A DNA stretch of 64,000 bases from Escherichia virus TH54. Positions 12,925 through 19,457 of the stretch are shown in pieces; the stretch's first letter is position 1; the number at the start of each line of letters is the position of its first letter. Below the pieces are notes generated by a model. It ran no database searches. It saw only the letters and a program-made list of their open reading frames with translations, and was not told the origin of the DNA. The position numbers were made by a program, and so were the translations under genes. Location of the stretch: sequence record MT446420.1; one strand, written 5' to 3'.

Positions 12925-14466
12925 TTATTTTAACCCAGTCTTTGACCAGTCGCCAAATACATCTTCGAATGTGTCTGCATGGTCTTTATCGAAACGGAAC
13001 CCTTTGATAATCGGCAGGAACAATGCAACCGTATTATCTTTACGAGTCTCGGAAGTCACCCAACCATTACATTCACAGTCAGCAATCATTCCAACCAATT
13101 CACCTTTACGAGCTTTAACCATCAAGGCTTCACGGTCCATTTCATGACGCTTCTCAATCGGAATAGTAACCCATTTTTTGGTTTTCTTATCTTTGACTTG
13201 AGTTGTGTCTTTAAAACCAGAACCACAGTTATTCGTAATCTTACCACAAGAAGAACGAAGCACAACACCGCCAATCTTATTCGGGTCTTTATCGTGCTCG
13301 TAATATCCAATGATTTCCATTGCAATGTCAATTACTTCTTTGAACTTGTACAAGTTCTTGGAGCGCTTGTTTTCCCAAATCGATGCCATGTTCTTAAGGA
13401 TAATACCTTCAAGACCTTCATCCACATATTTCTTATAGATAACCTTCGCTTCATCGAGATTGTTAACAACATGGTTTTCAATCAGAATCATGCGGTCAAA
13501 ACCGTGCAGCACCACGTTATCTGCAATCATTTTTTCCAGAACAGCAAAACGCACATCGTATTTCAACGGATTGAGAATCTTAACATCAGAATAGACTTCA
13601 ATCAGCGGAACATAATCCCAAACCTGGAATTTCATGCAAGAAGCTTCTGCTGCAGAAATAGTTCCTTTCAATGATTTGTTTGCCAGACCATTTGAAAAGG
13701 TTCTTGATTCCGCGAATTCCGCGAATTCTTTTGCCTTACTAAGCTCAGGCATATCGTCAAAAAGGAAGCTCAAACCATCATTCTGGGGAGCTATTTTCTG
13801 TTCATGATATACTAACTCGCCGTCAATCAAAACGCCCTCAGGATGTCTCTCACGCGCTTCACGGGTAGCTTCAATCAATTCCTTTTTAAGGAGGTCAAGC
13901 TTGAGGTATTCGTTGCCAGCTCGGGATAACAATCGAACATCATCCAACTCATCGCCACGAACTTCTGCAAAACACCGAGCGCCGTCGGCTTTCAATTGTG
14001 CAAAGGCCGGGAACTTAATGTTCTTGGCAATACCTGCTTCATCATAAGAAGAAGCAAGCATCTGCGGTTGTTCAGGAATTAAACCTTTCCAAACCTTATT
14101 TGCAATCGATACGGATGCTCCGCATTCCAGGTCACGCATCATCACACGACGCAGAACTTCAACGTCAGCTTTTTTACCATCTGCAATGTAGCCAGATAAT
14201 TCCTCGATTGCCGCATTACCTGTTAATTTGCGACGGGCTAATGTGAATTCGATAAAGCCAAGCATATCATCGATATTCAACATACCAAAGCTTTGAGTCG
14301 TTGCCCCAGGTTTTGGCCATTTCTTGATATAGAACTGGATGCCTTTGGAATATGTCAAACGATACACGCGTTTAAGGGTTTCATTGTCAGAATACGATTC
14401 CAGAATAGCTTGTTTCTCTTTAGTGGAATCGGTTGCAGCAATTTCATTTAAAATATCTAAAATCAT
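12925..14466 (-). CDS. 30: ATP-dependent DNA ligase gp30
   Basis: 513 aa; N-terminus MILDILNEIAATDSTKEKQAILE and most internal blocks match T4 DNA ligase (487 aa) from memory. Confidence 0.93.
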   Translation of the reverse strand: MILDILNEIAATDSTKEKQAILESYSDNETLKRVYRLTYSKGIQFYIKKWPKPGATTQSFGMLNIDDMLGFIEFTLARRKLTGNAAIEELSGYIADGKKADVEVLRRVMMRDLECGASVSIANKVWKGLIPEQPQMLASSYDEAGIAKNIKFPAFAQLKADGARCFAEVRGDELDDVRLLSRAGNEYLKLDLLKKELIEATREARERHPEGVLIDGELVYHEQKIAPQNDGLSFLFDDMPELSKAKEFAEFAESRTFSNGLANKSLKGTISAAEASCMKFQVWDYVPLIEVYSDVKILNPLKYDVRFAVLEKMIADNVVLHGFDRMILIENHVVNNLDEAKVIYKKYVDEGLEGIILKNMASIWENKRSKNLYKFKEVIDIAMEIIGYYEHDKDPNKIGGVVLRSSCGKITNNCGSGFKDTTQVKDKKTKKWVTIPIEKRHEMDREALMVKARKGELVGMIADCECNGWVTSETRKDNTVALFLPIIKGFRFDKDHADTFEDVFGDWSKTGLK

Positions 14467-14476
14467 TAATCACCTC

Positions 14477-14758
14477 TTAGTCGTTGACTCTATTATATGC
14501 CACATCTTCCAAAAGCAAATCCAGACGCTTATGATAAGAGAACACAAATCTCATTCGCCCATCTGGTTTAAACTTAGACATAAAGTGAACATAGATAAAC
14601 CCTTGCTCAACACATTCACGCCAAACCGGATGGTCTTTGGCTGGGTTAATATCAAACGAGTAATCATGATTCACATGACGAATAAACTGATTAACATGAC
14701 CATAATCCATGGTAGTAGTAGGACCATAATCAGAAATAGTATGAACGACAAACATCAA
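14477..14758 (-). CDS. hypothetical protein (30.1 position)
   Basis: 93 aa ORF between ligase and the HAD-like gene; tightly packed. Confidence 0.55.
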   Translation of the reverse strand: MMFVVHTISDYGPTTTMDYGHVNQFIRHVNHDYSFDINPAKDHPVWRECVEQGFIYVHFMSKFKPDGRMRFVFSYHKRLDLLLEDVAYNRVND

Positions 14759-15579
14759 TTACCCCCTTGGCCGCCGGTCGGTTGATTGTACCAATATTCA
14801 ATACCAGTACCCACACGCTGGCCATATTGATATGGATATGCTGGATTATAACCAGGAGTCCATGGTTGACCTGGTTGCCAGCCTTGTTGCATTTGTTGTT
14901 GAAGACGGCGAGTTTCACGAAACAGCTCTTCCAGTTTACGGAGTTCATCTGGGGTGAATTCTGGTTTGACCGGTTCATCTTTGTGTTTCAGTTTAAGCTG
15001 TCCAGCAACATCGTCCCAATTAAAAACTTTGGAAGCTGTTTTAGGAATAGCATCACGTTCGCCGCGGGCCATCCAATAAACAGGAACCTCAAGAATTTCA
15101 CTTGCATGGTCGCAATGGTGTGCAAGGTCATCAATATAACAAATGACATTATATTTGTCTTTTGCCTTCTGAAATAACTCCTCTTTAGAGGCTGTATGAC
15201 CACACATCATCACTTCTTTAAATGCCCCAGGGAACAAAGCATTCAGGTTGAATTGACGATTCAGACGAGCATCAATAGAATCACCCAGGGCTGTTACAGC
15301 CACAAAATCATATTGCTCTTTGAGGTTATTAATAACCCTTAATGCATCCGCATAAGGAGACAAATAGCGAATAAAGTCCGAACAGTTATATTTTTCAATT
15401 AACTGCGCGCCTAACTCTTCATCACAATTGAAGAGTTTACCAGGGGTCACAAATTTTTCATCCTGAATCATCTTAAGGATGTGTTCCAGGGGTAAATTAT
15501 ATTTTTGAGCGAAATAAGGCAAGCCAGACTGCCATGACAAACATACGCCATCAATATCTGTTAAAATAACGGGTTTCAT
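14755..15579 (-). CDS. HAD-superfamily phosphatase-like protein with low-complexity Q/P/Y/G-rich C-terminal tail
   Basis: N-terminal MKPVILTDIDGV matches the DxDG(T/V) HAD catalytic motif; C-terminal 50 aa are QQQMQQGWQPGQPWTPGYNPAYPYQYG... Confidence 0.6.
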   Translation of the reverse strand: MKPVILTDIDGVCLSWQSGLPYFAQKYNLPLEHILKMIQDEKFVTPGKLFNCDEELGAQLIEKYNCSDFIRYLSPYADALRVINNLKEQYDFVAVTALGDSIDARLNRQFNLNALFPGAFKEVMMCGHTASKEELFQKAKDKYNVICYIDDLAHHCDHASEILEVPVYWMARGERDAIPKTASKVFNWDDVAGQLKLKHKDEPVKPEFTPDELRKLEELFRETRRLQQQMQQGWQPGQPWTPGYNPAYPYQYGQRVGTGIEYWYNQPTGGQGGN

Positions 15580-16034
15580 AATGCATCTCTCAATTGGTTA
15601 AGTATGTCAATAAATTCTTGTTCAGTCAATATTGTATCATGAACAGTAAGGTGGCTCGCCATCGAATGCTTTAAAACTTTGCCCTTTGTGGCTTGTAATG
15701 CGTCGCGGAATCCTTTGTTTTGGAGCGCTGCTTCAAAATATGCATTTGTATACAACTCTTTCCATGATGTAGAGTATCTTGAAAAGGGAATTCCAAGCCA
15801 GAAAAGCGTCCCACGGTCCGCAGCTCTTGCATAAGCTCTTCCACTTTGCTGGGCGGCCAATCCGGACATCCCAAATATACGTTTTTGTTGTTCAACATTT
15901 CTCACCTTGCATCCTTGTAGGAAGCCTTCAAGACCTCCAAACTGGATACCCTCCATAACAAAAGGCCATTTAGCAAAGTTACTTAATGCACATGATGGCC
16001 ACGGAAAATTACTTCTGATTTCTAACTCAGACAT
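15576..16034 (-). CDS. hypothetical protein (30.3 position)
   Basis: Track ORF 15576-16181; ATG at 16034 (MSELEIRSNFPWP...) avoids overlap with the upstream gene. Confidence 0.5.
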   Translation of the reverse strand: MSELEIRSNFPWPSCALSNFAKWPFVMEGIQFGGLEGFLQGCKVRNVEQQKRIFGMSGLAAQQSGRAYARAADRGTLFWLGIPFSRYSTSWKELYTNAYFEAALQNKGFRDALQATKGKVLKHSMASHLTVHDTILTEQEFIDILNQLRDAL

Positions 16035-16239
16035 CTTTGACACTGATAATCTTGGTTGCATACCACATGCCATGGTCTGGCAATCTTTCTTTAATTGACC
16101 GCCCGCGATATGTTTTTCGCATAACAACAGTTTTAATAGCATCTTCATCGCAAGCATATGGCGGGGATAAATCAATAACACGATAAGTCACTTCAACCAT
16201 TTCCAAGCCAAACAGCTTTTTAAATAATTTATTAATCAT
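16027..16239 (-). CDS. hypothetical small protein, tandem paralogue A
   Basis: 70 aa; about 50 percent identical to the adjacent 16249-16461 product (shared EMVEVTYRV...IISVKD). Confidence 0.6.
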   Translation of the reverse strand: MINKLFKKLFGLEMVEVTYRVIDLSPPYACDEDAIKTVVMRKTYRGRSIKERLPDHGMWYATKIISVKDV

Positions 16240-16248
16240 GAAGGTTCC

Positions 16249-16461
16249 TTAAATATCTTTGACACTGATAATCTCTACATCAGCCCAATGACCATAACCA
16301 GGTAGACGGTCTTTAATAGATAATCCGCCGTCAGATTTCAGCATTTTAATTGTTTTAGTATATGGTTCAATATTTCGGGCCCATGGACTTACGTCAGTCA
16401 CGCGATAAGTCACTTCAACCATTTCTGTGCCCAAAATCTTCTGAATCAATTTCTTAAACAT
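16249..16461 (-). CDS. hypothetical small protein, tandem paralogue B
   Basis: 70 aa; paralogue of 16027-16239; a 20-nt identical DNA stretch at the 3' ends. Confidence 0.6.
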   Translation of the reverse strand: MFKKLIQKILGTEMVEVTYRVTDVSPWARNIEPYTKTIKMLKSDGGLSIKDRLPGYGHWADVEIISVKDI

Positions 16462-16462
16462 A

Positions 16463-16657
16463 TTAGCCTCGCTTTAAACATTTGATTACAGACAACTCAC
16501 CACCCATGCGAAGGTCTTCAGTTCCATCAACCCACAAGACTAAATACGCTTCTTTAATTACAATACCACCGAATTTAAAAGCAGGCAGGACCTTTGAAAT
16601 CATTCCAGGAATACCCACACCTTTTAACTGAACAGTTTGTGATAAGAATAATTTCAT
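16463..16657 (-). CDS. hypothetical small protein
   Basis: 64 aa ORF tightly abutting neighbours. Confidence 0.45.
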   Translation of the reverse strand: MKLFLSQTVQLKGVGIPGMISKVLPAFKFGGIVIKEAYLVLWVDGTEDLRMGGELSVIKCLKRG

Positions 16658-17869: not shown

Positions 17870-17895
17870 AAAAAAAGACTCCCGAAGGAGTCATT
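17870..17895 (-). terminator. hairpin terminator (GACTCC-CGAA-GGAGTC) followed by U-run
   Basis: Perfect stem with CGAA loop and a 9-nt T-run on the minus strand directly after an ORF stop. Confidence 0.65.
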
Positions 17896-18247
17896 TGATA
17901 ATTGTTTTATAGGTTACTTCAGCTGTATAGAAGTTTTTGGCTTTCATTACAATAGCTTCACCCTTTGGATTTGCCTCAATCCATTCTCTGGCGCGTTTAT
18001 GTGCTTCCAGTTCAGTAAGCAAACCAGAACGTTGACAGCCCCGGTCTTGTGTACCAGCTTCACTTAAGAAAGCGACAAGATAAATTGCATCGTCATACGG
18101 TTTCGCAGGTGGTGTGTATATCGGAGGGCTTGGTGGAACATATGCAGCAGGATGATGTTCCGGAATTGCATTGTATGGCTCCAGACCAGGCGCTGCATAC
18201 GATGCTCCACGCGGTGTAGTAAACGTGTGATTGTATCTATCGTTCAT
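17891..18247 (-). CDS. hypothetical protein with Pro-rich N-terminal region
   Basis: 118 aa; AGGAAAAT SD; terminator hairpin at its 3' end. Confidence 0.55.
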   Translation of the reverse strand: MNDRYNHTFTTPRGASYAAPGLEPYNAIPEHHPAAYVPPSPPIYTPPAKPYDDAIYLVAFLSEAGTQDRGCQRSGLLTELEAHKRAREWIEANPKGEAIVMKAKNFYTAEVTYKTIIK

Positions 18248-18289: not shown

Positions 18290-18451
18290 TTATGCTTTCG
18301 GCTTACCAAAGCAAGCTGCATCGGCACGCAATACCGCACGAGCACGAGCCTGAAGTTTATCAGTCACCTGATTGATTCGCTTGTTGGACGCACGCTTGTA
18401 ACCAGCGCGTTTGGAGGAGCCATCAACAACTTTAACTTCTTTCTTAGCCAT
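18290..18451 (-). CDS. small highly basic protein (53 aa)
   Basis: Hand-translated MAKKEVKVVDGSSKRAGYKRASNKRINQVTDKLQARARAVLRADAACFGKPKA; ATG start, terminator immediately downstream; below track cutoff. Confidence 0.4.
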   Translation of the reverse strand: MAKKEVKVVDGSSKRAGYKRASNKRINQVTDKLQARARAVLRADAACFGKPKA

Positions 18452-19109: not shown

Positions 19110-19457
19110 TTACTTATAAAGACAAGGAACAGCTTTATAATGACAGGTCACAAATTTCTGCTTAACTTCTTTAGCCTGCTTAAGTCCCAGAGCAACCAGA
19201 GGATGTGGAACGTTTGCAATCTTGCCAACCGGAAGAGGAGTCAAATCACCTACTTCACAGAAACCTTCAGGAACATCTGGGCCAATCGAAAATACTTCAC
19301 ACATCTCTGGGATTTCACCCTGATGGAGTTTTCCGATAACAATACCTGATGCCGTAGTTTCTTCATCACCAGCTTGCTTTGGCTCAGAAACCAAAATAAT
19401 ATATTCACCTACTGCTTTAATTGGTAATTCCATATTTAATCCATGTTGTTTGGTCAT
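19110..19457 (-). CDS. 31: co-chaperonin gp31 (GroES-like)
   Basis: [19 protein letters not shown]...[15 protein letters not shown] matches T4 gp31 closely from memory. Confidence 0.9.

Follow-up and report, generated by a model that had tools for sequence, protein, structure and literature searches.

Why does Escherichia virus TH54 carry two adjacent, related genes of 70 codons at a position where approximately 98% of the sampled T4-like phages, T4 included, have a single copy of gene 30.4, and how old is the pair? The locus lies in a stretch of 64,000 nucleotides of sequence record MT446420.1 (hereafter the window), where the first-pass annotation, made from the sequence alone, had described the open reading frames (ORFs) at 16027-16239 and 16249-16461 as the outcome of a recent tandem duplication followed by divergence under diversifying selection. 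The analysis presented here confirmed both ORFs at these coordinates, each of 70 codons on the minus strand, and favours another history, to which a probability of roughly 0.72 is assigned: the two ORFs form an old tandem pair of gp30.4-family genes with a single origin, both members have been selectively kept, the downstream member (copy A) has evolved fast, and the module has been exchanged laterally. The features on which the argument depends are the following.

16249-16461, minus strand: copy B, the upstream gp30.4-family gene; 70 codons, ATG start, phrog_2042 match
16027-16239, minus strand: copy A, the downstream gp30.4 paralogue; 70 codons, ATG start, phrog_2042 match
16240-16248, minus strand: 9-nt spacer GGAACCTTC between B and A, read from the sequence
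16403-16425, minus strand: 23-nt block of copy B, codons 13-20 (EMVEVTYR), identical to 16181-16203 of copy A
16181-16203, minus strand: 23-nt block of copy A, identical to 16403-16425 of copy B
16255-16274, minus strand: 20-nt block of copy B, codons 63-69, identical to 16033-16052 of copy A
16033-16052, minus strand: 20-nt block of copy A, identical to 16255-16274 of copy B
16363-16392, minus strand: hypervariable loop linking predicted strands beta1 and beta2 in copy B, codons 24-33 (VSPWARNIEP); from column entropy, the ratio of nonsynonymous to synonymous proportions of differences (pN/pS) and AlphaFold2 (AF2)
16141-16170, minus strand: loop of copy A, codons 24-33 (LSPPYACDED), from the family alignment

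The proteins encoded by copies A and B are identical at 37 of 70 residues (53%), with 46 of 70 positives and no gaps (BLASTP, E 7e-23), and the genes at 131 of 213 nucleotides (approximately 61%), with a repeat period of 222 bp. The proposed paralogy at about 50% identity is thus borne out by pairwise alignment, and the divergence of the copies, the shared motifs EMVEVTYRV, SIK.RLP and IISVKD, and the identical 20-nt stretch near the 3' ends (AGATTATCAGTGTCAAAGAT) are likewise real; a second and longer identical block of 23 nt over EMVEVTYR (GAAATGGTTGAAGTGACTTATCG) had gone unreported. Tandem Repeats Finder reported no repeat at the locus, as is to be expected of copies only approximately 61% identical in DNA, and a tblastn search of the whole window found no third copy (A and B match reciprocally at E 2e-18, the next matches having E > 0.2). 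A Shine-Dalgarno (SD)-like GAGG precedes copy B, while the SD-like TAAGGA of copy A consists of the TAA stop of B and the start of the 9-nt spacer. Copy B ends in ...SVKDI-TAA, where the usual family ending is ...SVKDV-TGA, and the start codon of the next gene, 30.3 (adfN), falls within the final 8 nt of copy A (ATGTCTGA), resulting in a start/stop overlap.

Both ORFs are, on sequence evidence, members of the T4 gp30.4 family (PHROG 2042, PF26911), because each matches phrog_2042 over its full length (copy A, E 2.9e-26; copy B, E 1.7e-34; residues 1-70 of the 72-position profile in each case), because Pfam PF26911 (Phage_T4_Y12I) is precomputed on near-identical proteins (P0001, 94% identical to A, and P0004, 94% identical to B), and because related GenBank records name the gene at this position 30.4. 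A local copy of Pfam-A gave no match to A or B themselves. When 1.84 billion representative proteins were searched with a profile, only T4-like relatives came up, and the family is therefore narrow. T4 gp30.4 itself (UniProt Q02405, Y12I_BPT4) belongs to the same hidden Markov model family, in which lengths are 68-72 amino acids (aa), lies between 30.5 and 30.3 with the same start/stop overlap with 30.3, and shares the invariant residues, including the C-terminal YGHW...IIS. However, the T4-type protein is only approximately 45% identical to B, A misses the T4-type at E < 1e-3, and T4 has one copy where the window has two.

A tblastn search with B located the family at 734 places in 721 phage records, and therefore 13 records hold two copies. 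With A as the query, copies more than 90% identical were found in 14 records, comprising 13 tandem arrays and one single gene (phage 212), after which the best match to A was only 58.6% identical. Beyond the window, the array occurs in the Gaprivervirus genomes TH57, TH44, PSD2001, CJ20 and P896, in the Dhakavirus genomes WG01 (ORF207/ORF208), PSD2002, LHE83, ABTNLS3, dhaeg and 04086, and in fDHCT2, whose record assigns no genus. WG01 and the 11 others share the arrangement and junction of the window, with a copy A of 93-99.5% DNA identity, but differ in the loop allele of B (WARNIE in the window, VHPQDE in the WG01 group, HTADHLE in dhaeg) and, in the Dhakavirus members, in flanking genes that diverge by 8-16%. 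The single-copy close relatives TH41, ECML-359 and VR25 are shorter by approximately 221 nt, about the length of one unit. Since the single-copy 30.4 genes of TH41 and its relatives match B at 94-97% identity and no single-copy gene resembles A, B is by sequence comparison the orthologue of the ordinary 30.4 and A a paralogue. In the records with arrays the copies are annotated merely as hypothetical proteins, and copy A is at times unannotated: the PSD2001 record omits it, and the CJ20 record annotates neither copy nor 30.5 and gives 30.3 an upstream start that reaches into copy A. The single-copy ECML-359 record leaves 30.4 and 30.5 unannotated. New here are the divergent subfamily A and a tandem arrangement that had not been described, while the family itself is known and uncharacterised.

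The age of the pair was approached through substitution rates, obtained by Nei-Gojobori (NG86) counting over 70 codons and, being near saturation, to be read as rough estimates. Between A and B, the proportion of synonymous differences (pS) is 0.67, the synonymous rate (dS) 1.64, the nonsynonymous rate (dN) 0.40 and their ratio (omega) approximately 0.24, with a saturated pS of 0.85 in the middle third. By comparison, dS is 1.09 between B and its orthologue in the Mosigvirus JS09 and 0.85 between B and that of VR5; within the conserved ends, dS is 1.11 for A/B and 0.90 for B/JS09. Because the synonymous sites of A and B are near saturation and their dS is at least that between 30.4 orthologues of different genera, the pair is, as dated by synonymous divergence, old and the duplication not recent.

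The junction between the copies reads GATATTTAAGGA(A/G)(C/T)CTTCATG in 13 of 13 tandem loci. In every phage examined, the copy adjoining 30.3 ends in ...KDV with GATGTCTGA, which contains the ATG of 30.3, whereas in all 13 arrays the upstream copy ends in ...KDI with GATATTTAA, followed by the 9-nt spacer GGA(A/G)(C/T)CTTC. The change of GATGTCTGA to GATATTTAA has thus eliminated, in all arrays, the internal ATG that the 3' end of B would otherwise contain. As this derived junction is common to every array despite the presence of three B loop alleles among them, it speaks for one origin of all arrays.

The identical blocks carry a different signal from the one first attributed to the 20-nt stretch. 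Between A and B, the two conserved strand blocks have a pS of 0.42, as against 0.8-0.9 elsewhere, while ordinary alleles, when pooled, show a pS of approximately 0.42 (0.42-0.45) in all regions, the strand blocks included. The blocks fall in the two strands that are conserved throughout the family and stand at the divergence level of ordinary alleles, so that neither the 20-nt nor the 23-nt block is the relic of a recent event. Given that A/B divergence equals the ordinary-allele level there and exceeds it elsewhere, the blocks have the appearance of stretches that were homogenised with the allele pool at large.

Both copies are under constraint. The ratio dN/dS is 0.14 among 13 A orthologues and 0.20 among 12 B orthologues, and no genome holds a disrupted copy; judged by these ratios, purifying selection maintains the two of them, and there is no pseudogene in the pair. 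The two copies have not evolved at equal rates. With a T4-type outgroup, A shows 13 unique changes and B only 2 (Tajima relative-rate test, p 0.0045), while the same test found no rate differences among B-type alleles. At similar dS, the conserved ends show a dN of 0.26 between A and B and of 0.07 between B and JS09. A neighbour-joining (NJ) tree places A on a long branch, supported by 100% of bootstrap replicates, that is nested among non-T4-type alleles and is weakly (59%) sister to P0027, a single-copy allele at the same position in metagenomic contigs. From the unequal changes, the dN excess and the long branch, it is concluded on comparative grounds that A has passed through roughly four-fold accelerated protein evolution and is conserved now. 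The middle region of A was also considered as close kin of P0027 and rejected as such, being 42% identical there and no nearer to it than to other alleles.

The proposal of diversifying selection holds in part. Loop codons 24-33 have a pN/pS of 0.85, compared to 0-0.36 elsewhere, and A has evolved faster than B; however, no region exceeds a pN/pS of 1 when alleles are pooled, omega between A and B is well below 1, and both copies are now under purifying selection. Single pairs reach values of approximately 1.2-1.8 in the middle third, but these derive from patch replacements, with recombination uncontrolled.

The module has moved between genera. In comparisons of the window with the Dhakavirus genomes WG01, 04086 and dhaeg, copy A has a pS of only 0.02-0.11, while in the flanks pS is 0.23-0.49 for 30.3, 0.34-0.44 for 30.5 and 0.57-0.60 for 30.6, and the nucleotide differences in A and in 30.3 are unequally distributed (Fisher p 0.002 to 1e-8). 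Over a run of approximately 360 nt that takes in the 3' half of B, the junction, copy A and the opening codons of 30.3, identity to WG01 is 97-100%. Because A is near-identical across genomes whose flanks differ by 8-16%, the module of the 3' B half, the junction and A has, on these alignments, been recently exchanged between Gaprivervirus and Dhakavirus, probably by homologous recombination. The differences between B of the window and B of WG01 cluster in a patch of approximately 25 nt inside near-identical sequence, which indicates that allele differences arise by patch replacement rather than point mutation. In dhaeg, the B copy (locus 976-1191) encodes 71 aa with the loop allele SPHTADHLEPYIMTIKMPKHDGG, nearest to T2-like Tequatrovirus such as PP01, and the A protein is 100% identical to that of the window, resulting in a mosaic of allele classes in one array.

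Arrays also appear to be lost. In phage 212 and in the metagenomic loci P0002 and P0003, the last of them single-copy in three independent contigs, one gene is B-like over codons 1-20 and A-like thereafter, with the switch inside the 23-nt block. Since full-length A is known from arrays only, these B::A chimeras are read as collapse by deletion, which would have occurred through homologous recombination between the copies. Continuing gene conversion between the two copies of each genome was considered and rejected, since other arrays show 1-2 nt of difference between their A and B blocks. A diversity-generating retroelement was likewise rejected: a blastn-short search found no second copy of the variable region, and hence no template repeat, in the 64-kb window (no search was aimed at a reverse transcriptase), and allele variation resembles patch replacement, not adenine-specific mutation.

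There are several alternative explanations for the pair. The strongest, although judged unlikely, is that A did not arise from B in place but from a divergent 30.4 allele that a different T4-like lineage carried and that was set beside the resident gene by unequal or illegitimate recombination in a mixed infection. The many allele classes of 30.4 combine conserved ends with swapped middles, so that inter-phage exchange at this gene is common; the nearest NJ relative of A is the single-copy P0027 allele, the 9-nt spacer is unlike either flank of the single-copy gene, and the A module demonstrably moves between genera. However, full-length A (N-terminus MI(N/K)KLFKKLFGL; MIKKLFKKLFGL) occurs only in arrays and never as a single copy, A stands at a similar distance (42-59% identity) from all alleles sampled, whichever of the three segments is compared, and the relative-rate test favours acceleration on the A branch over a merely old split. 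Stacking also predicts nearly the same present-day data as duplication. This near equivalence also detracts from the preferred history of an old tandem pair, as do rate estimates that come from 70 codons near saturation and are confounded by recombination, and a pooled loop pN/pS that stays below 1.

An improbable alternative is that the 20- and 23-nt blocks are functional nucleic-acid elements, such as a regulatory site, a structured RNA or a signal dedicated to recombination. In its favour, A and B match perfectly in the blocks while their other synonymous sites are nearly saturated, and the crossovers of the known chimeras fall in the 23-nt block; on the other hand, ordinary alleles show the same block pS of 0.42-0.45 as in other regions, the A/B blocks differ by 1-2 nt in other tandem genomes, and chance identity over approximately 5 synonymous sites has, by our own estimate, a probability of roughly 0.07 given a pS of 0.42. 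The reading first proposed, a recent in-situ duplication with rapid divergence under diversifying selection and the 20-nt stretch as its remnant, is very improbable. While it would accommodate the adjacency of the paralogues and their 222-bp period, the faster evolution of A and the hypervariable loop, it conflicts with a dS of 1.64 near saturation, with the same-junction array in 13 records across Gaprivervirus and Dhakavirus, with a whole-gene omega of 0.24 and present purifying selection on both copies, and with identical blocks that lie in family-wide conserved segments at ordinary-allele synonymous divergence. That one copy is redundant, decaying or an untranslated pseudogene, and the pair without adaptive meaning, would agree with the omission of A or of both copies from the PSD2001 and CJ20 records and with the dispensability of the T4 orthologue on E. 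coli K-12, but is refuted, to the point of being extremely improbable, by intact ORFs in 13 of 13 arrays with dN/dS of 0.14 and 0.20, SD-like sites for both, the retention by A of the start/stop overlap that the single-copy gene has with adfN, and the removal of the internal ATG of B in all arrays.

The old, single-origin pair thus preferred is set in a gene cluster that is familiar from other T4-like phages. Escherichia virus TH57 (Gaprivervirus) is 98.7% identical over this region, to which several hundred T4-like phages also give matches, and the window is that of a Gaprivervirus-like T4-type coliphage. The genes from 30.8 to 30 are tightly packed. Their minus-strand order of 30.8, 30.7, 30.6, 30.5, B, A, 30.3, 30.2, 30.1 and 30 is the order that annotated T4-like records keep around 30.4, and it bears out the earlier placement of the pair in a ligase-proximal early cluster.

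12925-14466, minus strand: DNA ligase gp30
14477-14758, minus strand: 30.1, DUF3045
14755-15579, minus strand: 30.2, 274 aa
15576-16034, minus strand: 30.3 (adfN), NADAR ADP-ribosylglycohydrolase, anti-DarT1 factor, intact, 152 aa; PF08010 Phage_30_3, E 2e-64
16463-16657, minus strand: 30.5, 64 aa, its stop 1 nt before the copy B ATG; phrog_1690, E 1.7e-28, named 30.5 in related records
Upstream of 30.5, minus strand: 30.6, 30.7 (PF06919) and 30.8 (PF06019)
19110-19457, minus strand, further upstream: gp31

In T4, the product of adfN, a NADAR ADP-ribosylglycohydrolase, is both required and by itself enough for overcoming DarTG1 (PMC11257639). Because the T4 orthologue of 30.3 neutralises DarTG1 and the gene is intact in the window, this phage is predicted to resist DarTG1. 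From the spacing of the genes and the start/stop overlap, the array would be co-transcribed and A would be translationally coupled to adfN. A promoter and terminator scan found promoter-like sites in numbers not above those in shuffled sequences and nothing convincing between the copies. Hints as to the start of the transcription unit come from a strong terminator-like hairpin at 17877-17892 and from promoter-like sites ahead of 30.8 and of 30.7; those ahead of 30.8 lie just downstream of the hairpin. The hairpin follows a 118-aa ORF (17877-18247, minus strand) with a proline-rich N-terminal half and a partial phrog_17531 match, which is situated between 30.8 and a small basic ORF of 53 aa (18290-18451).

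Several further observations concern the neighbouring genes. The 274-aa gp30.2 (14755-15579, minus strand) has a low-complexity tail rich in Q, P, G and Y (...QQQMQQGWQPGQPWTPGYNPAYPYQYGQRVGTGIEYWYNQPTGGQGGN) and weak PHROG similarity to polynucleotide kinase/HAD-type proteins; in Dhakavirus, 30.2 is annotated with 639 nt (212 aa), which suggests that the tail is missing there. Between 30.6 and 30.5, VR5 (locus 707-997) and QL01 (707-1003) have an extra ORF of approximately 97 aa that is absent from the window, PP01 is without 30.5, and in JS09 and AV110 a '30.6A' of 615 nt replaces the 288-nt 30.6. Given these additions, losses and replacements, the 30.x cluster is plastic.

In an alignment of 35 alleles, the family has near-invariant ends (MFKKLIQKLLGTEMVEVTYRVTD at the N-terminus and SIEDRLPGYGHWADVEIISVKDV at the C-terminus), with the highest column entropy at codons 24-33. 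The loop occurs in discrete classes (WARNIE, VHPQDE, HTEDHLE, YYAENRLE, GGQDIE, YLQDNKE and YEFCEK), the class of A being PYACDE. AF2 returned the same predicted fold for A and B, with mean predicted local distance difference test (pLDDT) scores of 85.4 and 87.1, respectively, consisting of a helix at residues 2-10, a strand at 14-23, the loop at 24-33, a strand at 34-41, a short helix at 49-52 and a strand at 60-69. A small alpha+beta fold is thus predicted, with an N-terminal amphipathic helix, three beta strands, the variable loop and a short helix. A and B are basic (isoelectric points (pI) of 9.4 and 9.0), unlike the acidic T4-type protein (pI 4.95, with a net charge of approximately -4 in the T4-type 30.4 of RB10), a large surface-charge contrast inside one small family. 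A metagenomic variant of 30.4, P0036, has 54 aa, of which the first 25 are normal and are followed by unrelated sequence and an early end; it is probably a frameshifted allele and may represent a natural loss of function.

What the proteins do is addressed by little direct evidence. The statement that the function could not be assigned was upheld: NCBIfam returned noise only, a sequence profile search of the PDB gave 0 matches at E <= 10, and the fold search found no homologue of known function and no recognisable catalytic fold in the 8-kDa gp30.4. In a literature search, no paper named 'gp30.4', and the 30.x gene names combined retrieved nothing relevant. Emp, from an early-protein toxicity screen of AV110 (Emp/Gp94), was considered as a possible 30.4 and rejected; it has 109 aa, adjoins motA and is a different gene. 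According to the supplements of PMC9697503, T4 30.4 has an early mRNA and is an early protein detected by mass spectrometry. In the supplement of the HIDEN-SEQ study (bioRxiv 10.1101/2025.11.20.689424), T4 30.4 tolerates transposon insertions at 21 of 21 sites in E. coli K-12 and is hence non-essential on that host. For A and B in this phage, the SD-like sites and purifying selection lend indirect support to translation.

These data would be consistent with gp30.4 being a non-essential early accessory protein that binds a polymorphic host, defence or competitor factor, with specificity set by the hypervariable 24-33 loop and the neighbouring surface, so that A and B may provide two specificities. 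This suggestion is tentative, and derives from a family that is early, dispensable, hypervariable, charge-variable, placed beside a counter-defence gene and equipped with a laterally spreading paralogue. A bolder version, which we consider doubtful, is that gp30.4 represents a new class of specificity-variable effectors, either counter-defence inhibitors or escape-prone triggers, whose loop tracks a polymorphic E. coli immunity or host factor, with B and A as a 'two-specificity' cassette that spreads between Gaprivervirus and Dhakavirus and widens host range. Several points argue in the opposite direction: 30.4 is absent from the main text of the HIDEN-SEQ study, one conditional comparison given for it in the supplement is non-significant (bioRxiv 10.1101/2025.11.20.689424), and AdfN alone suffices against DarTG1 (PMC11257639), so that adjacency to adfN does not imply joint function. 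While gp30.4 resembles gp30.3 (adfN) in belonging to the same apparent transcription unit, with a start/stop overlap, and in being early and dispensable on K-12, gp30.3 is an enzyme and the two have no kinship in sequence or fold.

It is also instructive to compare the pair with 'accordion' amplifications of counter-defence genes in large DNA viruses, which are recent, near-identical and unstable. One such case is reportedly the amplification of tifA in T4 evolved against toxIN. As in those cases, the window has a tandem small early accessory gene in a region with a known counter-defence gene (adfN); however, the pair here is old, only 53% identical and stably kept, with each copy under purifying selection.

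As it stands, the locus documents ordinary accessory-gene evolution in T4-like phages, in which an uncharacterised family has been duplicated once, has diverged and has been shuffled, and its interest is modest unless a function emerges. Nevertheless, it provides a natural example of a tandem pair that formed, was swapped between genera and collapsed via homology blocks of 20-23 nt, and it corrects public annotations, as copy A is missing from several GenBank records. With its early expression, dispensability, hypervariable loop, charge shift between lineages and overlap with adfN, gp30.4 is a reasonable candidate for a T-even counter-defence or host-takeover factor, and its naturally occurring alleles, together with the A/B pair, would offer ready-made specificity variants.

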